Shown: positions 8,543-49,464 of the stretch, piece by piece | Layout: every line of letters begins with the position of its first letter | How positions within the stretch are numbered: position 1 is the first letter of the stretch | Sequence record: PX418923.1 | Length of the DNA stretch: 50,008 nucleotides | Strand: one strand, 5' to 3' | Origin: a phage | Made by a program: the position numbers and the translations under genes | The notes under the pieces: generated by a model | What the model was told of the DNA's origin: nothing | Seen by the model: the letters and a program-made list of their open reading frames with translations, nothing else | Database searches by the model: none

Positions 8543-8770
8543 ATGAATAACTTTGAACATTACTTTAAACGGTTGCCGACTGGACTCACACATGTTGATG
8601 TGTATTGGGTGCTAAGATTGTTTCGTGTAAATGACCCATGTATACAACATGCAATCAAAAAACTGTTAGTGCCAGGAAAGCGTGGATCTAAGAGTGAGCA
8701 CAAGGATGTTGAAGAAGCAATTGCTTCCTTGCAACGCTTCTTGCAAATGGAGAAGGAGGATGTGTTTTAA
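8543..8770 (+). CDS. Hypothetical protein (75 aa)
   Basis: ATG immediately after exonuclease stop, in frame with ORF-track ORF 8363-8770. Confidence 0.4.
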   Translation: MNNFEHYFKRLPTGLTHVDVYWVLRLFRVNDPCIQHAIKKLLVPGKRGSKSEHKDVEEAIASLQRFLQMEKEDVF

Positions 8771-9117
8771 TGAGGCTAATAATCGCCGGGAGTAGGGATA
8801 TAACCCCATTGCAATTCGAAGAGGCTTTGCAAGAAATCCGACAGGATTTTGAAATGGAAGTAACGGAGATTGTTTCAGGAAATGCCAGGGGAGTCGATAA
8901 ATATGGCGAACAAGTTGCTAAAGAGAATTCATTGGCGTTGACAGTTTTTAAGCCGGACTGGTCTAAAGGTAAGTCAGCAGGCATGATCAGGAATAAGGAA
9001 ATGGGTGATTATGCTGACGCACTGTTCGCAGTGTGGGATGGTCAGTCAAAAGGGACCAAGCACATGATTGATTATATGATTGGGTTGGGCAAACCTGTGC
9101 AGGTAGTAATCAAATGA
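8770..9117 (+). CDS. SLOG/DUF2493-family Rossmann-like protein (DprA/LOG-like)
   Basis: GSRD...SGNARGVD...RNKEM...AVWDG.SKGT pattern recalled for DUF2493; ATGA overlap with next gene. Confidence 0.55.
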   Translation: MRLIIAGSRDITPLQFEEALQEIRQDFEMEVTEIVSGNARGVDKYGEQVAKENSLALTVFKPDWSKGKSAGMIRNKEMGDYADALFAVWDGQSKGTKHMIDYMIGLGKPVQVVIK

Positions 9118-9788
9118 CACAGATTGAGGTTAAACTTGTAGATAGTATGGGGGACGATTTACGTGTCTGTAACGCTGCCCGCGTCTCCTTCAATAAATGG
9201 AAAGAAGAGCTAGACGAGGGTGATGTTGGTCTTATTAATTACCTTGCTCGTCATGAACATTCTAGTCCTTTCCGTCATACAGCAATTACCCTTAGTTGTA
9301 AGGCTCCGGTCTTTCTTGCTAGGCAACTCGGCAAGCACCAAGTTGGGCTCTCTTGGAACGAGGTATCACGTCGCTACGTCGATGCTGGTATTGAATTCTT
9401 TGTTCCTGATAATTGGCGTAGTCGCCCTGATGGTTCCGTAAAACAAGGTAGCGGTGATGCCATCATTGATGAGTACACTGGTACAGATCAGGACGGAGCA
9501 TATGCTGGTTCTGTTAAGCAAGACTATAGATATGTCTTAAGCTATTTGATGCAAGTGTATGATGAGTGGATTAAGCATGGTGTAGCTCCTGAAATGGCGC
9601 GTATGGTTCTTCCACAGTCTATGATGGTTGATTGGATTTGGACTGGAAGCCTACCTGCCTTCTTCCATGTATGGCGTCTACGTATTGATAGCCACGCTCA
9701 GAAAGAAGCTCAAGAGTTTGCACAGAAGCTGGAAGAAGTTGTTCAACCCATTTTCCCACATTCTTGGAAGGCCCTTAAAAATGCTTAA
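9114..9788 (+). CDS. thyX: Flavin-dependent thymidylate synthase ThyX-like protein (divergent active-site motif)
   Basis: AARVSF...RHEHSSPFRH...SWNEVSRRY matches ThyX core, but the canonical RHR motif position reads GKHQ. Confidence 0.7.
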   Translation: MTQIEVKLVDSMGDDLRVCNAARVSFNKWKEELDEGDVGLINYLARHEHSSPFRHTAITLSCKAPVFLARQLGKHQVGLSWNEVSRRYVDAGIEFFVPDNWRSRPDGSVKQGSGDAIIDEYTGTDQDGAYAGSVKQDYRYVLSYLMQVYDEWIKHGVAPEMARMVLPQSMMVDWIWTGSLPAFFHVWRLRIDSHAQKEAQEFAQKLEEVVQPIFPHSWKALKNA

Positions 9789-10428
9789 ACCAACTAAAAT
9801 GCACGAGTTGTATGACCTTGCTCTACATGACCGCAAGAACATGCCTGTAGTGGCGTATGGAAGCGCTGGGACAGGTAAGACATATGGTGCTATTGGTCGA
9901 GCTGTATCGTGGCTAGAAACTAACCGTAAGAGCCGTGTAGTGATTGCCAGACCTAACGTCTCCTTCGCTGATACTAACGGGTTTCTGCCTGGCACTGAGC
10001 GAGAGAAGTTGGAGCCTTGGATTAGGCCCCTGCAACAAAACTTTATTGAACATGGTATTGGCATCCGGCACCAAGAAGACCTTGAGAAAAACCATCGTCT
10101 TCAATACTACATGCTTGAACACATTCAAGGGCTTACCTGGGATGACTCTCTCATCATTGTAGATGAATGTCAGAACATGTCCTTCGAACAGATTAAAGTG
10201 TTGGTTACTCGTGTAGGTGAGTACAGCAAACTTGTATTGTGTGGGGACATTGCTCAAACCTCTCCACTGTTTAAAAACTCTGGACTTGCGAGATTTATTG
10301 ATATGGTCGGTAGATATAACTTGCCTGTCCATACTATTCACTTCACTGTAGATGATGTTCTTCGTAGTGAAACTTGCAAGATGTTCATCCAAGCTTTTGA
10401 GGAAGAAGAACATGATCGCGGCATTTAA
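9781..10428 (+). CDS. phoH: PhoH-like ATPase
   Basis: Walker A GSAGTGKT, Walker B IIVDECQN; ATG 9781 overlaps thyX stop. Confidence 0.85.
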   Translation: MLKPTKMHELYDLALHDRKNMPVVAYGSAGTGKTYGAIGRAVSWLETNRKSRVVIARPNVSFADTNGFLPGTEREKLEPWIRPLQQNFIEHGIGIRHQEDLEKNHRLQYYMLEHIQGLTWDDSLIIVDECQNMSFEQIKVLVTRVGEYSKLVLCGDIAQTSPLFKNSGLARFIDMVGRYNLPVHTIHFTVDDVLRSETCKMFIQAFEEEEHDRGI

Positions 10429-10537
10429 TGCACTGCTTGAGTGTTTCGTAACAGGCTTATTCACAGCCCTAATCTTGCTAAGGCAGCACGTCTAGGCTAT
10501 ATGCCTATGTTAATGGTTGTTCAACAAGAGGAAAAGA

Positions 10538-10786
10538 ATGAAGAAGATGACACTGTTGAGCGCTAATTGGTGTGGACCATGTGGCGTAATCAAAGAATGT
10601 ATTGGTCGTAACGAGTATCAAGTAGAGGTTATCGACATTGACAAAAACCCTGCGGCTGCAAGAGAGTTCGGTATCAGAGGTATACCTACTCTAGTAGTGT
10701 TCACTGATGAAAAACCTGAGCTTGTAACAGGCGTACATAACATCCTAGTTAAGATGAAAGAGGTAAGTAATGCCCAGACTGCTTGA
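10538..10786 (+). CDS. Thioredoxin
   Basis: WCGPC active site; AAGAGG RBS 6 nt before ATG 10538. Confidence 0.8.
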   Translation: MKKMTLLSANWCGPCGVIKECIGRNEYQVEVIDIDKNPAAAREFGIRGIPTLVVFTDEKPELVTGVHNILVKMKEVSNAQTA

Positions 10787-11085
10787 GCCTAAGTATAGTT
10801 ATACCTTTGACTATCCTGAAGCCATTCAGTTTGCTAAGGTACAGTCATCTATCTTCTGGACTGATGACGAGATTAACGTAGAAAAAGATATTCAAGACAT
10901 TCGTGTAAACATGACAGAGGCGGAGGCGCATGGAGTCATTACAACACTTCGTCTCTTTACTTTGTACGAACTGGTTGCTGGTCGTGACTATTGGCTTGGT
11001 CGTGTCCTCAAAACTTTCCCTCGTCCTGATATTGAGAGGATGGCAGCTACTTTTGGGTTCTTTGAACTTAATGTTCACGCTCCGT
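10770..11085 (+). CDS. nrdB: Ribonucleotide reductase small subunit NrdB, exon 1
   Basis: N-terminal R2 homology through the iron-ligand E..H region (FFELNVHAP); unspliced frame stops at 11093. Confidence 0.7.
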
Positions 11086-11900
11086 CAAAATAGGGCGGCC
11101 TTTTCAAGAGATTGAAATTGAATAACTAACCTAAAAACGGGGAAGGGTTACTGACCTAATCCCGTGCTAACTCGCTATGAGATGTGTAACGACTATGAAA
11201 ATTAAAGACAAAAAAGAACTAATTAAGCTCATTTCCTTCATCACCATGGGTGATGGGTCTGTCTATAGGAACCGTGGTGCAGGCAACTGTCTGTTCTCCT
11301 TTTCCCAAACTGAAGACCACAAAGACTTCGTAGATTATGTGGGTTCCATCATCTCCAATATCACGTCTTACAAGGTTGTGGTAGATGAGAGAGAGGCACC
11401 AAGGAAATCTCTGCTTAAGTTGTGCACTCCTGTACATCCATACTTCAACAAACTGCGTGACCGGATTTATGTAGACTCCTACAAATCCATTGATCCACAT
11501 GCGTTGAAGATGTTAGACTTTGAAGCGTTAGCTATTTTGTATATGTGCGACGGTTGTTTGGGTAAGAGTATGAATTCGAACGGCTCTGTTGCTCGAACAG
11601 TGACACTTAACTTGTGCAGACTCTCCTACGGAGACCAGCTTCTACTGAAGAAGGCTCTTAAAGAAAAGTTAGACCTGGAATGGAACGTCGTTAAAACTGG
11701 TGGTAAATACCTGACTTTGCGTTTGCGGATGAAAGATTTCGACAAATTCATGCATGGTATCGAGCCATATATGCAAGAAAGCTTCCGATATAAACTTGAA
11801 ATTCGTACGGTTAGCCCCGAGAAATCGGGTGGTGAGATAGTCTGATCTATGTGGCAACACATAGGAGCCTGGCAGAAATGTCCAGGACATGAACGATATG
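11086..11900 (+). mobile_element. Group I intron in nrdB carrying a LAGLIDADG homing endonuclease ORF
   Basis: 5' exon ends in U (11085), intron ends in G (11900); the splice restores frame (codon T+TC=Phe) giving a 322-aa NrdB; intron contains P3-P7-like AAACGGGGAA...AAUCCCGUGCUAA and 3' GAGAUAGUCUG plus GNRA hairpin. Confidence 0.6.
11177..11845 (+). CDS. LAGLIDADG homing endonuclease (intron-encoded)
   Basis: Two LAGLIDADG-type motifs (LISFITMGDGSV and LAILYMCDGCLG). Confidence 0.8.
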   Translation: MRCVTTMKIKDKKELIKLISFITMGDGSVYRNRGAGNCLFSFSQTEDHKDFVDYVGSIISNITSYKVVVDEREAPRKSLLKLCTPVHPYFNKLRDRIYVDSYKSIDPHALKMLDFEALAILYMCDGCLGKSMNSNGSVARTVTLNLCRLSYGDQLLLKKALKEKLDLEWNVVKTGGKYLTLRLRMKDFDKFMHGIEPYMQESFRYKLEIRTVSPEKSGGEIV

Positions 11901-12553
11901 TCTACAATAAGATTAATGAAGCGCTTATGCTCAATACGGACGAGTTTTATCTTGCTTATGTTAACGATCCCATTCTAAAAGAACGTATGGAGTTTGTTGA
12001 CAGTTTGGTTGAGAAAGATGACCCACTGTACAGTCTTGGCGCTTTCTCTATGGTAGAGGGTGCTGTTCTGTACTCAAGCTTTGCTTTCCTTAAGCACTTC
12101 CAAGCTAAAGGTAAGAACAAACTGATGAACGTAGTGAGGGGTATTAACTTCTCTGTACGTGATGAGAACCTGCACTGTGAAGGTGGGGCTTGGTTGTTTA
12201 ATACTTTGAAGCAAGAGATTAAAGCTGAGGGTGGATACATCAACCCAAACCTTGAGTATGACTTGGCTAACTGTGCCAGAACTATTGCAGAGCATGAGTT
12301 CCGTATTGTTGACATGATCTTTGAGAAGGGTGAAATGGAAGGCATCACTGCTGAACAAATGAAAACCTTTGTCAAGTCTCGCGTTAATATTTGTCTTGCT
12401 CAGCTTGGTATTGATCCGGTGTTTGATGTAAGTAACAACATCATTGCTGAATGGTTCTATGACGGAATTAACGGAGTTATGTTCCATGACTTCTTCTCTG
12501 GCATTGGTAATAGTTACAACCGCAGTTGGGATGAGAAAGGATTTAGTTGGTGA
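11901..12553 (+). CDS. nrdB: Ribonucleotide reductase small subunit NrdB, exon 2
   Basis: Continues R2 homology (YNKINEA..., second iron-ligand motif RDENLHCEG). Confidence 0.7.
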
Positions 12554-40215: not shown

Positions 40216-40298
40216 GCGGGAGTAGCCCCGTCAGTCTTCTAAACTGATAAGGGTAATTGGAGCTGAAAATGTGAGTTCGAATCTCACCTCCCGCGCCA
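40216..40298 (+). tRNA. tRNA-like element with canonical T-arm, acceptor stem and encoded CCA but no recognisable D-arm
   Basis: 5' GCGGGAG pairs with 3' CTCCCGC; T-arm GTGAG-TTCGAAT-CTCAC; discriminator G and CCA at 40296-40298; internal hairpin TCAGT-CTTCTAA-ACTGA could be an anticodon arm (TCT). Confidence 0.4.
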
Positions 40299-41654: not shown

Positions 41655-42590
41655 ATGAAACGGGAACACTACCAAATTGCCCTTAAGGCTCGTAAAGTCT
41701 TTCGTGAAATTCTTGTAAAAAAGAAAAAATATAATGGCCTGTGCTGTGTCCGTGACGGCGCGATGGCTTCTGTAGCTGCCGTATACCTAAATGATGAGGC
41801 GTACAAGAATCACTTGTTGATTAGCACTAACCAAGCTTGTCATGCTGGTCTACAATCACTACACACCGGCTCTGTCGCTGTAATTAGTGGCCTGCAACCA
41901 AAATACAAAGGCAACTTGATTGATAAAGAAGAGGGTGTAGCGTTCCTTGATTGGCTGCTTAATCGTAGCCCGTATAGCGAGGTGTTTGTCACTAAGTCTG
42001 CTAAAGACGCAATCAAGAACAGTTGTATCATTGCAGACTCTAACTATCCATCTAATCTACTGGCGGCTGGTCTTGTCGCTTCCCGTCGTCTTTGGGAGTA
42101 CAGCGAGATTGTTATTGTATGGTATGACTTGGTGAAGGCTGGTATGAATGAAGACCTAGCCTACTGGGTTGCGCATAAAGCTCAATGCAGAAGCAACAGA
42201 ACAGGAAACATTAGTTTCACTGGTTGCCAGTCTGGCCACTGCTCTATGAATCCGAACCTTTTTGATAGAGAAGCACTTAAAGCATGGCTCAATCATAAAG
42301 TAGTAAATCCCAATCAGACTTACAGTCAATCAACACATTACAATTACTATGATAGGATGTACTCTAATCTTGGTAAGTTGAAAGGTGCGGGCTATTGGAT
42401 GGGGACACCTGAAGACAGCATTGGTTATTGGTTAGATAACGATTTTGATCCAAAGAAAAAAGATGGTGTGAATAACAACCCGTTTATTAAGGCACTTCCG
42501 AAAGTTAAAGGTGCTTGTAAATACGCCGATGGCATTAAAGCTATGGCTGAATTTGAAAAGAAAATTATGGAGGAAGTAAATCGTGCCTAA
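41655..42590 (+). CDS. Hypothetical protein (311 aa), possibly part of the downstream amidoligase cluster
   Basis: Stop overlaps the start of the class-I amidotransferase-like gene. Confidence 0.5.
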   Translation: MKREHYQIALKARKVFREILVKKKKYNGLCCVRDGAMASVAAVYLNDEAYKNHLLISTNQACHAGLQSLHTGSVAVISGLQPKYKGNLIDKEEGVAFLDWLLNRSPYSEVFVTKSAKDAIKNSCIIADSNYPSNLLAAGLVASRRLWEYSEIVIVWYDLVKAGMNEDLAYWVAHKAQCRSNRTGNISFTGCQSGHCSMNPNLFDREALKAWLNHKVVNPNQTYSQSTHYNYYDRMYSNLGKLKGAGYWMGTPEDSIGYWLDNDFDPKKKDGVNNNPFIKALPKVKGACKYADGIKAMAEFEKKIMEEVNRA

Positions 42591-43203
42591 AGTACATATC
42601 ATCAACAGTAGTGACGAATACGTGCACATGTTTGGTAAGATGGGTTGGGAAGTTGTTGGCATCAAAGACTTCTTCAATGCTGATCTCATCCAATTTACTG
42701 GCGGTTCCGACGTAACTCCCATGCTGTATGGGGAAAGCCTGCACCCCAAGACTTATTGCAGCCAACGTCGTGATTTGGAAGAAGCAGGCTACTTTGCATT
42801 TGCTCAACGTTGCTCCATTCCTATGGCTGGCCTCTGTCGAGGCGGTCAGTTCCTTAACGTTATGAATGGTGGTAAGATGTTCCAACATGTTGATGGGCAT
42901 GCCACTGGTCGAAACCACATTCTGTTTGATCGGTTCACTAACAAGTCTTGTAATGTAACCTCTACTCACCATCAAATGATGATCCCACATTATAGTGGTG
43001 AAGTCATTGCAATCGCACATGAGGCTAAAGTCAAGGAAAGTTATGGCACTACCTTCCCCAGCGGTGGTGATGATGTAGAGGTAGTATATTATGACAAAAC
43101 CAAATCGTTGTGCTTCCAACCACACCCCGAGTTTTATCACGCTGACAGTACTCGTGACTATTACTTTGAACTTCTCGAACGTTATTTGGGGCTGTCCGCA
43201 TAA
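42583..43203 (+). CDS. Class-I glutamine amidotransferase-like / peptidase C26 (gamma-glutamyl hydrolase-like) protein
   Basis: Catalytic Cys motif G-L-C-R-G-G-Q and C-terminal HPE; GTG start with GGAGGAAG RBS. Confidence 0.6.
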   Translation: MPKVHIINSSDEYVHMFGKMGWEVVGIKDFFNADLIQFTGGSDVTPMLYGESLHPKTYCSQRRDLEEAGYFAFAQRCSIPMAGLCRGGQFLNVMNGGKMFQHVDGHATGRNHILFDRFTNKSCNVTSTHHQMMIPHYSGEVIAIAHEAKVKESYGTTFPSGGDDVEVVYYDKTKSLCFQPHPEFYHADSTRDYYFELLERYLGLSA

Positions 43204-43254
43204 GCTCGAATAATGCGATGGGCAATGGTTTGAATTTCTGCTAGAAAAATTTTT
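43202..43254 (+). promoter_or_regulatory. Conserved repeated element, copy 3 (AAGCTCGAATAATGCGATGGGCAATGG...GAATTTCTGCTAGAAAAATTTTT)
   Basis: Lies between the C26-like gene stop and the GGAGG RBS of the next gene. Confidence 0.4.
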
Positions 43255-43266
43255 GGAGGTTTATTT

Positions 43267-43458
43267 ATGCACAGTGGTTGTGATGGGGAACACACCCTAT
43301 TACTATTGTGTAGGCAATGTCAGTGCAAGTTTTATTGGGGCACTGTCTATCATGGAATCAGTGAGCTAACTAAATGTCCAAACATTGTTTGCAAAGCGAG
43401 CGGAAGTAAATCTTTCATAATTCAACAGAGAATCCATAACGGAACTTTGGTTAAATAA
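43267..43458 (+). CDS. Small Cys-rich zinc-ribbon protein
   Basis: CDGEH...CRQCQC...CPNIVC; GGAGG RBS. Confidence 0.45.
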   Translation: MHSGCDGEHTLLLLCRQCQCKFYWGTVYHGISELTKCPNIVCKASGSKSFIIQQRIHNGTLVK

Positions 43459-43493
43459 CTAAGCAACCTCGTCGAGGTTCGGAGGATAAAATT

Positions 43494-44825
43494 ATTTGCG
43501 GTCTAGTTGGCGTTGCTGGCGGTATTACTTTTAACTTGGAAAAGGTTTTTAAGAACCTTCTTCAACTCGATACTATTCGTGGTCCTCATAGCACTGGTGT
43601 GGCTATGGTTCGAACTAATGGTGACAATAAAACTGTAAAGAAGTTGGGCACCCCTTGGGAAGGGCTGTTCGACAGTAAGGATTTTGAAGAGTATCTGAAA
43701 GGTGGCTCTTTTAACGTATTGCTTGGACACAATCGGTGGGCGACTAAAGGTAAAATCAATGCCAAGAACGCTCACCCGTTTGACTTCGATACTTTGGTAG
43801 GCGCTCATAACGGTACTCTTCGATCTGTTCGTGATCTGGACGATCATGAGAAGTTTGAGGTAGATAGTGAAAATATCTATCATCATATGGAACGTAATGG
43901 TGTTGCAGACACTATCAAACTCCTTGATGGTGCGTTCGCACTAACTTGGTATAACAAAGAAGAGAGTACGATTAATTTCATTCGCAACAATGAACGTCCT
44001 CTTTACTATTGCTTGACCGAGGATAGGAAAGCCATCATCTGGGCAAGTGAAGATTGGATGATTGAAGTTGCTTGTGGTATGGCTGGTCAGAAGTTTGGTG
44101 AAATTTTCTCTCTTCCGATTGGTGTTCACTTCACTTTCGACATTACACTTGGCTCACCTTACCAGTACAAACCTCTGGAAAAATGCCGTACTCGAAAGTT
44201 GGAGCTGCGTCAAAATTTTCAGAAAGCCGTAGTGGCATCTACTACCTCTACGGCTACTAACAACGTATTCAAGTCGTCCGAGTCTTCGGTGGGAAAGTCC
44301 GTCCCGGCAGCAGGTTTCATGGAGTACCAGAGGTTTGTAGGAAAGTCGTGCGACTTTTACGTCGACAGGGTAGCGACTAACAACTATAACCAAAAGTATC
44401 TGCAATGCTGGGCTTGTGACAACGACTTGGTCTCTATTCGTTGTTATGCCGGTGAAGGTAGTGAGCTTTGGATGAAGATGGTTAACTCTGCTAACTTCTT
44501 CAGAGCGCATGTTAAATCTTTCAGCACTTCTGAAAAAGGTTATTTGACTATTGATCTTCGCACAGTAGAAGAGCTAGCGGAGAAGGAAGAAGAGGAACCT
44601 ACAGAACAAACTGATGATACTCCGCCTGAAATGTATGTTGTGTATGGGGGAGAAGTGGTAAGTCGTGTTGTCTACGAGCAACGCACGGAGAAATGTTGTT
44701 CATGGTGCAGCAGTCCTGTAGATGAGACAGACGCAAATGATCTTGTGTGGCTTGATAAACACACTTTTGTTTGCGGTAGTTGTAAAGAGTTTTCTGAAGT
44801 TAAACAATATCTTAAACTTGCATAG
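43494..44825 (+). CDS. Class-II glutamine amidotransferase (Ntn-hydrolase) domain protein with Cys-rich C-terminal domain; probable ATT start
   Basis: (M)CGLVGVAGG N-terminus, HNRWATKG, GAHNGTL, DSE, LDGAFAL; GGAGGA RBS 7 nt before ATT 43494; no synthetase domain. Confidence 0.65.
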   Translation: MCGLVGVAGGITFNLEKVFKNLLQLDTIRGPHSTGVAMVRTNGDNKTVKKLGTPWEGLFDSKDFEEYLKGGSFNVLLGHNRWATKGKINAKNAHPFDFDTLVGAHNGTLRSVRDLDDHEKFEVDSENIYHHMERNGVADTIKLLDGAFALTWYNKEESTINFIRNNERPLYYCLTEDRKAIIWASEDWMIEVACGMAGQKFGEIFSLPIGVHFTFDITLGSPYQYKPLEKCRTRKLELRQNFQKAVVASTTSTATNNVFKSSESSVGKSVPAAGFMEYQRFVGKSCDFYVDRVATNNYNQKYLQCWACDNDLVSIRCYAGEGSELWMKMVNSANFFRAHVKSFSTSEKGYLTIDLRTVEELAEKEEEEPTEQTDDTPPEMYVVYGGEVVSRVVYEQRTEKCCSWCSSPVDETDANDLVWLDKHTFVCGSCKEFSEVKQYLKLA

Positions 44826-44834
44826 GTAAATAAA

Positions 44835-45698
44835 ATGAGTCTGAACATTCTGGTTGGCGCTGATCCGGAAATCTTCATGATGAAAGACGGCAAATACGTA
44901 TCAGCACACGGTGCTATTCCTGGCAATAAGAAGGAACCTTTCAAAGTTGAGAAAGGTGCTGTCCAAGTAGATGGCATGGCATTGGAGTTTAACATTGATC
45001 CTGCTAAAAACGAAAAAGAGTTCGTACGTAACCTCACTACGGTAATGTCTACCCTCAAGGGTATGGTGCCTGGATTCGAATTGAATCCCTCTCCGGTTGC
45101 TGAATTCGGTTTCGATTATATCAAGGGTCAACCTGATGAAGCGAAGGAGCTTGGGTGTGAGCCTGACTTCAACGCTTATGAAAACGGTGCAGCTAATCCT
45201 CGTCCCAATGCTGAAGTAGACTTCCGTACTGGTGCTGGTCACGTACACATTGGTTGGGGAAATGACATTGATATCAGTGATCCTGACCACATTGAGGCGT
45301 GCTGCATGGCAGCAAAACAACTCGACTATTACCTTGGGTTGCCCAGCCTTCTTTATGATAAGCAAGTTAAGCGTCGTACTCTTTATGGTGCTATGGGAGC
45401 ATTCCGTCCTAAGCCGTATGGTGTCGAGTACCGAGTGTTGTCCAACGCTTGGTTGAAAGATGAAGCACTTATGAAGTGGGTATTTAAAAACACTGTGCTT
45501 GGCATCAAAAAACTCCTTGAGGGTAAGCCTGCTTACGATAAGGACTATGATACCACTGTTAGGGAGCTTGGCGTGTCAGCTAAACCTAATGAATACCACC
45601 TAGCGTGGCTCCTTGGTAAAAACAAAATCCCTATGCCGCCTGGATTTGTATTGGTTGAAGGATGCTTCCCTGGGGATTATGTTATCAAGCAGGTGTAA
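44835..45698 (+). CDS. Amidoligase-like protein (glutamine synthetase-like COOH-NH2 ligase), paralog A
   Basis: GADPEIF, GAGHVHIGWG and R...YGAMGAFRPKPYGVEYR motifs, parallel to the protein at 46245. Confidence 0.5.
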   Translation: MSLNILVGADPEIFMMKDGKYVSAHGAIPGNKKEPFKVEKGAVQVDGMALEFNIDPAKNEKEFVRNLTTVMSTLKGMVPGFELNPSPVAEFGFDYIKGQPDEAKELGCEPDFNAYENGAANPRPNAEVDFRTGAGHVHIGWGNDIDISDPDHIEACCMAAKQLDYYLGLPSLLYDKQVKRRTLYGAMGAFRPKPYGVEYRVLSNAWLKDEALMKWVFKNTVLGIKKLLEGKPAYDKDYDTTVRELGVSAKPNEYHLAWLLGKNKIPMPPGFVLVEGCFPGDYVIKQV

Positions 45699-45699
45699 C

Positions 45700-46248
45700 A
45701 TGAATATGTATGGTGATGATTGGCAATATGCAGACTCCCGACTTAACAATACTATTGTTAGGCATGAAGGTAAGGGAGTCCTTGTTAACAAGGTGATGAA
45801 GAAAGGAGCCCTGATCACTTCTCTTCGAGGTGGTGACGGTAATGTTGTTAACCTTGATGACCTAGACTTGACTCCTGTAAAGCTAGGTTTTGCCAATATT
45901 GGCAATACAATCTCTTACCTTACTCGTATGCCAATGCGTAGGGATTGGAGACAAGGGCTCCGAGTTGGGAACTTCACTTCAGTATACGGCACTCCTGCCG
46001 GTCTAGTTAACTACAATGCGTTAGCAGATACTATTGAAGGCATCTACCCAACTTTGCAAGAGTGTGTTGATTCGTCAGCTAGAGTATTGAAAGCTTGGTG
46101 TAGGGAGTGGGCTGTCGGTAATAGTAAGTTGAAAAATAACAGACCACTCATTTACAAAAACCTAATTGTTGGTTGTGTGAGAGACGGTAATCCAGAACTG
46201 AGCGGTGAGTTCATGTTTCTTCGAGAAGCACTACAGGAGGTGCTATGA
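45700..46248 (+). CDS. Hypothetical protein within the amidoligase cluster
   Basis: ATG right after upstream stop; overlaps next start. Confidence 0.45.
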
Positions 46249-47192
46249 AAACTGTAATGCAGTGGTTCGGCATTCAACTACCTACCAAGGGTGACGTTGG
46301 TGTCGAGATTGAGGTGGAGGGCAAGAATTTGCCCAAAGCTTTTGATAGATATTGGCGAGTAGAGGCTGACGGTTCTCTTCGTGGTGAAGATAACGCAGAG
46401 TATGTCCTAGAGAAGCCTATGACTCTTCGTCAAGTTAAGCTTGCCCTAAGTCACCTTAACATGCAATACAAGAAGAACAATTCAGTTGTTGATGACACGG
46501 TACGTGCTGGTGTTCATGTACATATCAACGTTCAACAACTGAACATTGTAGAGCTTTATAACTTTATGACGCTCTACCTTACTCTTGAGGAACTTTTGGT
46601 TAAGTTCTGTGGTCCATATCGAGAAGGTAATTTGTTCTGCCTCCGTGCTTGTGATGCAGAATGGTTGTTGTTCAGACTGTCAGAGGCAGCACGGACTCGA
46701 CAGTTTAGACGCATTCTGACTGATGATAATCTTCGCTACGGCTCTATGAACGTTAAGGCTTTGGGTACGTATGGTAGTCTTGAGTTCCGTGCTATGCGTG
46801 GCACTCGTGATTTAAACCTCATTCATAAGTGGGCTAATATTCTTGTTGATCTTCGTGAAGCTGCTAAGAAGTTTACTGATCCTAAAGATATTATCAACAG
46901 CTATTCTGAGGGTGATTATGTAGCGTTCCTTAATAAATGTCTTGGTGAGCATGTAGAGTTGTTTAAGGACTACGACAACGTACCCAAGATGTTGAACGAT
47001 GGTATGCGACGAGCACAGGACATTGCTTTCTGTTGTGATTGGCAACAGTTCTTCCAAGAAGAAATTGTTCCGCCTGCCCCAGCACCGAGAAAGAAAGTTC
47101 TTAACTATGATTTTGATCCCATTGCGTTCTTTGGTGAAGTACCAAAAGAAATCTTCCCACCGATTTGGGTTGAAGAAGGAGTGCCGTTCTAA
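46245..47192 (+). CDS. Amidoligase (glutamine synthetase-like COOH-NH2 ligase), paralog B
   Basis: [42 protein letters not shown] motifs; GGAGG RBS. Confidence 0.55.
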
Positions 47193-47944
47193 TGTTTATC
47201 TATGCGTACAATAATGCCAGCAAGGCTGGTAAGCAAATCAGGGACATGCTTAATGTAAAATTTATTAAGCATAAAAACTCTAAGTTCAAAGGCTCCCCAG
47301 ATAAAGTGGTGATTAACTGGGGTAGTAGCAATCTTCCAGAAGAAGTTCTTAAGTGTACGGTTGTTAATGCCTCTGTAGCCGTCTCCAGGGCCGCTAACAA
47401 GCGTTCTTTCTTCGAGGCAATGGTAGGGCATGCCCGTACACCAGAATTCACTACAGACAAAGCTGAGGCCCTTAAATGGGTGGATGGTGGAAACACTGTA
47501 GTGTGTCGTACTTTGCTAAATGCAAACAGTGGTAAGGGTATTGTACTTGTAGGGCCAGGTGATGGTGAGCTTGTCGATGCACCTCTGTACACTAAGTATG
47601 TGCCCAAGAAACAAGAGTGGCGAATCCATGTGTTCCGTGGTGAGTGTGTAGACATTCAAAGAAAAGCACGTAAGAAAGATGTTCCTGATGAAGAAGTGAA
47701 CTGGAAGATTAGGAACATTGGTGGTGGTTTTATCTTTGCACGCAACGAAGGAATTAAACCTCATGAAGACATTATTGAACAAGCTATTAAGGCTGTTGAA
47801 GCCTGTGGACTTGACTTCGGCGCAGCAGACGTCATCTTCAATGAGAAAGAACAGAAAGCCTACGTGTTGGAAGTCAATACAGCTCCGGGAGTTGATGGCA
47901 CAACGCTCGAAGGTTATGTCAAAAGATTTAAGGAGTTGAAATGA
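47192..47944 (+). CDS. ATP-grasp ligase (RimK-like)
   Basis: WRIHVFRGE and C-terminal YVLEVNTAPG motifs. Confidence 0.65.
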   Translation: MFIYAYNNASKAGKQIRDMLNVKFIKHKNSKFKGSPDKVVINWGSSNLPEEVLKCTVVNASVAVSRAANKRSFFEAMVGHARTPEFTTDKAEALKWVDGGNTVVCRTLLNANSGKGIVLVGPGDGELVDAPLYTKYVPKKQEWRIHVFRGECVDIQRKARKKDVPDEEVNWKIRNIGGGFIFARNEGIKPHEDIIEQAIKAVEACGLDFGAADVIFNEKEQKAYVLEVNTAPGVDGTTLEGYVKRFKELK

Positions 47945-49164: not shown

Positions 49165-49464
49165 ATGAAAGTATTGATTGAGAGTATCAAACGCTGGGCT
49201 AGTGACAGAAATTTGGTTGAAGGCAGCACGCCTAAAGATCAATGCCTTAAACTCATTCAAGAAGTTGGAGAGCTTAGTGACAGTTTGTGTAAAGGTAAAC
49301 CAGCCATTGACGACATTGGCGATTGTATGGTGGTACTAATCATTCTAGCTGAGCAACTTGGATTGTCTGTAGAGGATTGTCTGTATCATTCCTATCAAGA
49401 AATTAAAGACCGTAAAGGTCGAATGATTGATGGCGTATTTGTCAAGGAGCAAGATTATGTATGA
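49165..49464 (+). CDS. mazG: MazG-like nucleotide pyrophosphohydrolase
   Basis: EVGEL and DIGD acidic motifs of the small MazG-like all-alpha NTP-PPase family; GGAGAG RBS. Confidence 0.6.
   Translation: MKVLIESIKRWASDRNLVEGSTPKDQCLKLIQEVGELSDSLCKGKPAIDDIGDCMVVLIILAEQLGLSVEDCLYHSYQEIKDRKGRMIDGVFVKEQDYV

Follow-up and report, generated by a model that had tools for sequence, protein, structure and literature searches.

K-H-Q in place of R-H-R in a phage ThyX: a conserved subfamily variant of a probably active flavin-dependent thymidylate synthase

The window, meaning the whole 50,008-nt stretch of DNA that was analyzed (PX418923.1), is in essence a complete ~50 kb genome of a P. aeruginosa (Pseudomonas aeruginosa) podovirus of the PA11/TC6/O4 type. 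At the DNA level it shares 90-97% identity with phages HHBS10_2, PPAY, PPAT, FBPa8, TC6, PA11 and O4, and its closest relatives were isolated on P. aeruginosa. The gene under study corresponds to exactly one ORF in the ORF listing, 9114-9788 (+), with an ATG start. The genes surrounding it were identified as follows.

8770..9117, + strand: SLOG/YspA-like small protein, upstream of thyX (PF10686 YAcAr, E 6.7e-10; phrog_289 'GTP-binding domain', E 3e-27)
9114..9788, + strand: thyX CDS, 224 aa plus TAA stop, putative flavin-dependent thymidylate synthase of the K-H-x / S-R-R-Y subfamily
9781..10428, + strand: phoH-like ATPase, downstream of thyX (PF02562 PhoH, E 7.6e-43)
10517-10786: thioredoxin, after phoH (Thioredoxin, E 1.3e-8)

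The stop codon of the SLOG/YspA gene overlaps the thyX start (ATGA), while the phoH ATG lies 8 nt before the thyX stop and overlaps the last thyX codons. thyX is translationally coupled to both neighbors. Class Ia ribonucleotide reductase (RNR) genes, recognized by Ribonuc_red_sm and Ribonuc_red_lgC matches, follow the thioredoxin gene. Together thyX, phoH, thioredoxin and the class Ia RNR genes form a nucleotide-supply operon of the classic kind, and the annotation of phage HHBS10_2 shows these genes in the same order. The GC content of the phage is 44.6% and that of P. aeruginosa is ~66%, so dTMP beyond the dTTP released by host DNA breakdown would be useful. The same argument about GC content and dTTP supply has been made for PBCV-1 (PMC10142491).

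Both profile matches and fold place the ORF in the Thy1/ThyX family, as a full-length member. Pfam PF02511 Thy1 matched it over profile positions 1-191/191 (E 9e-44, 150 bits, cutoff 24.8), the TIGR02170 thyX equivalog over positions 1-209/211 (141.1 bits, cutoff 87.9), and phrog_85 thymidylate synthase with E 5.6e-69. Among PDB ThyX chains, Thermus thermophilus 6j61 (E 2.6e-32) and Thermotoga maritima ThyX (E 8e-30) were matched. An AlphaFold2 model of the ORF built from 47 homologues had a pLDDT of 86.2 and a pTM of 0.81. The best 50 Foldseek matches of this model in the PDB were all ThyX/FDTS chains (TM 0.74-0.80, probability 1.00), with TM 0.77-0.80 to the T. maritima and T. thermophilus enzymes. 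The phage protein shares the fold of these canonical enzymes (T. maritima TM0449, 1O26/1KQ4; T. thermophilus 6J61) at ~30-32% identity, and they presumably catalyze the same reaction.

A first-pass annotation had aligned the protein with ThyX and pointed to an apparently degenerate substrate-binding motif. The segments it named are all present: A21-A-R-V-S25, H49-S-S-P-F-R-H55, N82-E-V-S-R-R-Y88 and G73-K-H-Q76. Its reading of G-K-H-Q where R-H-R is expected was borne out by alignment with T. maritima ThyX, which places K-H-Q there. HMMER paired T. maritima ARQWFRHRIA-SYNELSGRY with ARQLGKHQVGLSWNEVSRRY of the phage protein, so that R78 is replaced by K74, H79 corresponds to H75, R80 is replaced by Q76, a one-residue insertion follows and G89 becomes R86. 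HMMER and MAFFT agree on both the +1 insertion and K-H-Q. Residues R70 to Y88 thus equal T. maritima R74...R78-H79-R80...S88-G89-R90-Y91 with one extra residue. R-H-R conserved at a shifted position, the case the annotation itself had allowed for, was looked for and is absent throughout the protein. The segments that carry the argument are listed below.

9321..9377, + strand: variant motif R70-Y88, R-Q-L-G-K74-H75-Q76-V-G-L-S-W-N82-E83-V-S85-R86-R87-Y88, from the HMMER alignment to 1kq4/1o26
9333-9335, + strand: K74 codon, aag
9336-9338, + strand: H75 codon, cac
9339-9341, + strand: Q76 codon, caa
9441..9452, + strand: K110-Q-G-S113 loop, counterpart of NKQxS / NRQxS in the Thermus and cyanophage enzymes
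9591..9701, + strand: C-terminal active-site segment, E160 to Q196, from column mapping to T. maritima

In reading K74-H75-Q76-X8-S85 the phage protein departs from the historical R-H-R-X7-S signature of Myllykallio 2002 (quoted in PMC2826268), which is also the textbook form of the motif. Review literature calls R-H-R 'highly conserved'. Ulmer et al. in 2008 reportedly placed R95-H-R97 in an essential extended motif by mutagenesis of M. tuberculosis ThyX, and a plain Arg-to-Gln substitution of the third residue should impair a canonical enzyme. The same authors are said to write the motif as RHRX7-8S, which would make the X8 spacing a known variation.

Outside the variant positions the catalytic and substrate contacts that were checked are retained. 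The phage protein keeps Ser-x-Arg-Tyr of the substrate-recognition peptide (S85, R87, Y88). It also keeps the ligands of the dUMP phosphate and uracil (T. maritima R74, Q75, E86, R147 and R174) as R70, Q71, E83, R163 and R190, as well as the folate-stacking His, H49 (T. maritima H53), and E160 (T. maritima E144). By equivalence R70, Q71, S85, R87 and R163 would contact the dUMP phosphate, E83 the ribose O3' and R190 the uracil. Column mapping of the C-terminal segment paired E160 with E144, R163 with R147, R190 with R174, H194 with H178 and Q196 with Q180. With these, T. maritima H53, R74, Q75, E86, S88, R90, Y91, E144, R147, R174, H178 and Q180 all have equivalents in the phage protein. The differences from the T. 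maritima enzyme are G89 to R86, R165 to P181 (the Arg is lost), N169 to H185 and E58 to R54; the C-terminal segment also contains S179. Unlike that of T. maritima ThyX, the central segment is longer and variable and contains the K-Q-G-S loop, which pairs with Thermus 'NKQAS' and cyanophage 'NRQNS'. K110, Q111 and G112 are nearly invariant in subfamily alignments.

The variant was found in 120/120 nearest homologues (58-96% identity), many of them on ~50 kb contigs, with the pattern K-H-[Q/T/C/A/V]-x-G-[L/M]-[S/T/A]-W-N-E-x-S-R-R-Y. A private mutation or a sequencing artefact was ruled out, since all 120 share it. A word-index-free HMMER search of a library of 1.84 billion cluster representatives returned 7,248 ThyX-like clusters. 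All of the best 150 of these 7,248 representatives (50%-identity clusters) carry the variant in the form [K/R]-[H/S]-x, usually with X8 spacing and almost always with S-R-R-Y. The description of the motif as degenerate is at odds with this conservation in both the 120 nearest homologues and the best 150 representatives. The canonical PDB ThyX chains score at most 116 bits against the phage protein. Since 715 clusters scored better than E 1e-30 (~123 bits), and so outscored any canonical PDB ThyX, the subfamily probably accounts for about one tenth of the diversity of ThyX clusters.

Among bacterial and archaeal genome matches 76/80 have the variant; three Chloroflexi-type loci keep S-G-R-Y and one match was unparsed. 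Cultured phages with the variant include Sinorhizobium phage phiM6 (K-H-S), Kuravirus CHD5UKE1 (K-H-Q) and Roseophage SIO1 (K-H-K, S-R-R-Y), and a K-Y-x version whose insert is longer occurs in phages of Geobacillus, Streptomyces and Bacillus. R-H-R with S-G/Q-R-Y is kept in mycobacteriophage Catera, Gordonia phage Aflac and a cyanophage. We defined the subfamily by the replacement of R-H-R with [K/R]-[H/S]-x, an Arg where T. maritima has G89 and the lack of an Arg where it has R165. The phage protein has all three features (K74-H75-Q76, R86 and P181). On these sequence features it is best placed in a K-H-x / S-R-R-Y subfamily and should not be called an 'R-H-R-type' ThyX.

The functional residues of T. 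maritima ThyX were mapped on 172 diverse members, comprising 92 representatives (≤270 aa) and 80 genome matches. The equivalents of S88, R90, Y91, E144, R147, R174 and Q180 were identical in 172/172. Those of H53 and E86 were conserved in 170/172 each, R74 in 156/172 and Q75 in 157/172. Across the subfamily, conservation at the dUMP and folate contacts that were checked is therefore 91-100%. The first motif position (R78) is Lys in 148 members and Arg in 24, and the second (H79) is His in 153 and Ser in 19. The third (R80) is free: Q 92, T 20, K 17, V 13, M 5 and R 5. At the G89 position Arg is found in 163/172 members and Gly in 7, versus Arg in 0/7 canonical enzymes, which have Gly, Ala or Gln there. 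The seven comparators were the T. maritima, Thermus, Catera, Aflac and cyanophage enzymes, PolB (Ala97) and PBCV-1 ThyX (Gln89). The R165 position is occupied by A/Y/L/M/Q/F and is never Arg-dominated, and at the N169 position most members have Arg (R 122, H 29). In alignments of relatives K74, H75, G78 and R86 are invariant.

The gene is under purifying selection, with dN/dS of 0.14 against the phage HHBS10_2 copy and 0.19 against a 63%-identical MAG copy. In some relatives, annotated as Thy1 + Intein_splicing + Thy1, inteins sit inside the motif itself, as in ...VVHN|SWNE..., and some contain HNH endonucleases. Inteins characteristically lodge in essential active-site motifs. Cellular copies are found in chromosomal surroundings. 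A Spirochaetia chromosome (OZ251568.1, 1.79 Mb) encodes a K-H-Q / S-R-R-Y ThyX 49% identical to the phage protein, flanked by genes for citrate synthase, aldo-keto reductase (AKR) and SDR and by that for dihydroorotate dehydrogenase. An R-H-T / S-R-R-Y ThyX is encoded both in a genome of TM6 (Dependentiae; LBTE01) and on a Pseudomonadota contig of 1.08 Mb; in each case the gene directly downstream is that for dCTP deaminase, which supplies the dUMP precursor, and a gene for a class II aminoacyl-tRNA synthetase or for EF-P also adjoins.

We consider the ORF to encode an active flavin-dependent thymidylate synthase of a mainly phage-borne K-H-x-X8-S-R-R-Y subfamily, with a probability of about 0.85. 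The first-pass annotation had offered a divergent active enzyme as one of two options, and the conserved contacts, the dN/dS of 0.14 and the cellular dTMP-pathway and housekeeping contexts favor it. The enzyme would convert dUMP, CH2-H4folate and NADPH to dTMP via a reduced-flavin methylene relay. R78 has been described as facing the flavin N1/C2=O of FADH- and H53 as stacking on the folate (PMC11940539), and K74 falls at the R78 position by alignment rather than by coordinates, a Lys for an Arg that keeps the charge. K74 could therefore stand in for the first Arg, giving a positive charge at the flavin N1/C2=O and a contact with the ribose O3', which in PolB is bound by the R78 equivalent (PMC5003785). 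H75 would keep the flavin ribityl/phosphate contact, as the RHR motif and M. tuberculosis R190 are H-bonding ligands of the FAD phosphate and ribityl groups (PMC6514825). R78, R80, S88 and R90 also H-bond dUMP (PMC3498832). The charge lost by the change of R80 to Q76 is probably supplied by R86 of S-R-R-Y, which would take over from the third Arg. This compensation is suggested by the covariation at the G89 position and by published contacts of the homologous residue: PBCV-1 Gln89 can occupy the dUMP-phosphate pocket (PMC3498832), and the residue that follows the serine in PolB makes a phosphate contact (PMC5003785).

The nucleotide/flavin phosphate site of an active synthase might be rewired, with weaker or exchangeable FAD, use of FMN, or altered dUMP affinity or inhibitor sensitivity. 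This refines the reading as an active synthase and is not an alternative function; we regard it as possible yet unlikely. Across the 172 members the third Arg and the R165 equivalent are lost while Arg is gained at G89 and Arg/His at N169, and the residues affected include the published FAD ligands (PMC6514825). PDB sequence and fold searches returned R-H-R enzymes only, with no crystallized K-H-x member, and no published enzymology for any K-H-x member was found in the searchable literature. However, the first Arg is conservatively replaced by Lys, the His is kept and flavin identity is not readable from sequence. Pro181 occupies the position of T. maritima R165 / M. tuberculosis R190, a second FAD-phosphate ligand. 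Thermus ThyX, a canonical FAD enzyme, also has no R165 equivalent (His instead), which makes the absence here less telling. An inactive remnant, a pseudo-enzyme that has lost substrate or cofactor binding, would explain the literal absence of R-H-R and is barely credible given the intact full-length ORF, the dN/dS of 0.14-0.19 and the confidently predicted fold. Seven active-site residues are 100% conserved in 172 members down to ~40% identity, and the variant motif is itself invariant at K74, H75, G78 and R86.

The other option in the first-pass annotation was a repurposed ThyX fold, which might make another C5-modified pyrimidine nucleotide or use UMP or dCMP as substrate. One example would be 5-hydroxymethyl-dUMP, which would arise if water captured the exocyclic-methylene intermediate and might feed DNA hypermodification. 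The altered motif touches both flavin and dUMP, and the window contains an amidoligase / GATase / COOH-NH2 ligase / ATP-grasp cluster at 42.6-47.9 kb that could serve such a pathway; in viral metagenomes such genes occur near thymidine-hypermodification genes (PMC8989533). Kuravirus likewise combines a K-H-Q ThyX with a COOH-NH2 ligase, the latter judged from its Pfam family name. Nevertheless, we consider repurposing very improbable, and the option found no support. The uracil-recognizing R190, the folate-stacking H49 and the other dUMP contacts checked are conserved, and the TIGR02170 equivalog cutoff is passed. The variant also occurs in cellular chromosomes beside dCTP deaminase or core metabolic genes, where a dTMP synthase is needed. 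Neither the annotated relative nor Pfam/PHROG scans of the window's unknown ORFs yielded a second thymidylate synthase, a 5-hmdU DNA kinase or an aGPT-Pplase, and the papers on TC6 and PPAY/PPAT report neither restriction digests nor base compositions that bear on DNA modification. The ThyA-family dUMP hydroxymethylases of SPO1, M6, ViI and phiW-14 (PMC8989533) would be functional analogues under a repurposed fold only; they have an unrelated fold, and those phages encode the 5-hmdU DNA kinase and aGPT-Pplase not found here.

PolB, the polyoxin UMP/dUMP C5-methylase (PDB 4P5A-C), is a ThyX-fold paralogue with a changed substrate range (PMC5003785) and so lends the repurposing idea a precedent. 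It matched the phage protein more weakly than canonical ThyX did (4p5a, E 1.1e-22). From published contacts it keeps Arg86 at the first motif position and has Ser-Ala-Arg-Tyr 96-99 versus S-R-R-Y here. It thus appears canonical in the motif, and tyrosines of Loop 1 and Loop 2 (Y124, Y126) determine its specificity (PMC5003785), so the known case of repurposing apparently did not proceed through motif change. PolB belongs to a polyoxin-type cluster, whereas the phage gene lies in a replication module. With the third motif Arg and the R165 equivalent missing from its active site, the whole subfamily might be more than a plain dTMP synthase, either releasing another C5 product such as 5-hydroxymethyl-dUMP or handling the flavin in a way without precedent; this likewise seems highly doubtful. 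If true, ThyX of PA11-like phages and Kuravirus could build modified thymidine together with the amidoligase / GATase / COOH-NH2 ligase / ATP-grasp genes of the same phages.

With the reading as an active synthase, the gene is best regarded as a normal phage thymidylate synthase and K-H-Q as a conserved subfamily signature, not decay. R-H-R-X7-S is not matched by at least 270 homologues, SIO1 ThyX and the cellular genes adjoining dcd among them, and the historical signature is therefore too narrow for the family. Counted as clusters at 50% identity, the textbook motif fails for at least 150 and probably ~700, mostly phage-borne. A 2004 paper by Liu and Yang, reportedly on '...distinctive ThyX motifs' by its title, may already describe variant motifs. 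The signature has been used as a filter in an evolutionary study (PMC2826268). Tolerance of the loss of a supposedly essential Arg has some relevance to ThyX inhibitor design and to the annotation of phage nucleotide metabolism.

In GenBank near-identical phage genes are annotated as (flavin-dependent) thymidylate synthase, and the SIO1 gene has been so annotated since 2000. The ThyX proteins of SIO1 (gp11, NP_064749), PA11/TC6/O4/PPAY/PSA11, Kuravirus and phiM6 belong to the same K-H-x plus S-R-R-Y subfamily, with differences in detail: in SIO1 the motif is K-H-K at X7 spacing, in phiM6 it is K-H-S. The PSA11 copy and metagenome cluster P0001 each share 96% identity with the phage protein. 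PPAY and PPAT thyX are 675 nt long, as here, and lie in 96-97% identical DNA. PA11-like phages have the same operon with phoH, trx and RNR genes. The PA11 and HHBS10_2 copies are 213 aa and differ from the present protein in the central segment (~residues 114-150).

The thyX product has 224 aa in this phage versus 213 aa in the related Pseudomonas phages PA11 and HHBS10_2. Over ∼35 residues in its centre (residues ∼114–150, window about 9450–9565), the sequence is unrelated to the PA11 and HHBS10_2 copies, while the flanks on either side share >90% identity with them. A divergent centre between such similar flanks indicates mosaic recombination inside the gene. The AlphaFold2 model predicts a β-hairpin at residues 120–133, within the differing segment.

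The start codon of thyX is overlapped by a small upstream gene.

8770–9117 (+), SLOG/YspA-like small protein (PF10686, E = 6.7e-10; phrog_289 'GTP-binding domain')

HHBS10_2 and PA11 carry another small gene here, with the annotation 'nucleotide kinase', and in phage O4 the annotation is a 'DprA-like' protein. The position directly 5' of thyX looks like a swappable slot.

Downstream of thyX, the coding region of nrdB (10770–12553, +), which encodes the RNR small subunit, is in two pieces separated by another ORF.

10770–11093 (+), nrdB exon 1, Pfam Ribonuc_red_sm profile positions 5–96
11177–11845, LAGLIDADG_2 homing endonuclease ORF, between the nrdB exons
11849–12553 (+), nrdB exon 2, Pfam Ribonuc_red_sm profile positions 98–279

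The full Rfam Intron_gpI model matches 11076–11864, but its score of 30 bits falls short of the 50-bit gathering threshold; the E-value in a targeted search was 1.7e-5. The interruption is probably a group I intron with a homing endonuclease inside. The nrdB gene of the relative HHBS10_2 is annotated as two separate CDSs.

Inteins were found in the ThyX relatives of two metagenomic phage contigs.

L082, 4001–5215, intein-bearing ThyX
L085, 2162–3604, intein-bearing ThyX

Both are interrupted within the ThyX motif, directly before the [S/T]-W/R-N-E residues, and an HNH endonuclease domain is present in one of the two. Inteins also account for the length of 330–640 aa seen in many of the best 150 ThyX cluster representatives.

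ThyX proteins with R-H-T and S-R-R-Y are also encoded in two cellular sequences. In each, the dCTP deaminase gene comes directly after thyX and overlaps it, so that the two make a compact thyX-dcd pair.

L080, 2896–4271, thyX and dCTP deaminase, TM6/Dependentiae genome
L065, 2962–4216, thyX and dCTP deaminase, 1.08 Mb Pseudomonadota contig

Elsewhere in the window, 40216–40295 (+) matches the full Rfam tRNA model (RF00005) with 44.3 bits, where the gathering score is 29; ARAGORN predicted 0 tRNAs in the entire window. A tRNA-like element of the phage that has diverged or degenerated is one possible reading.

A larger group of genes lies near the end of the window.

42583–47944 (+), plus 49165–49464, amidoligase cluster with a MazG-like gene after it

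The cluster at 42583–47944 is a phage 'amidoligase' system containing a class I GATase (Peptidase_C26), a class II GATase, a phiEco32-like COOH-NH2 ligase type 2, Amidoligase_2 and an R2K ATP-grasp protein, with unknown ORFs scattered among these genes. PhiEco32 belongs to Kuravirus, and Kuravirus phages likewise carry a K-H-Q-type ThyX; this shared presence may reflect common ancestry rather than a functional link with the amidoligase genes.
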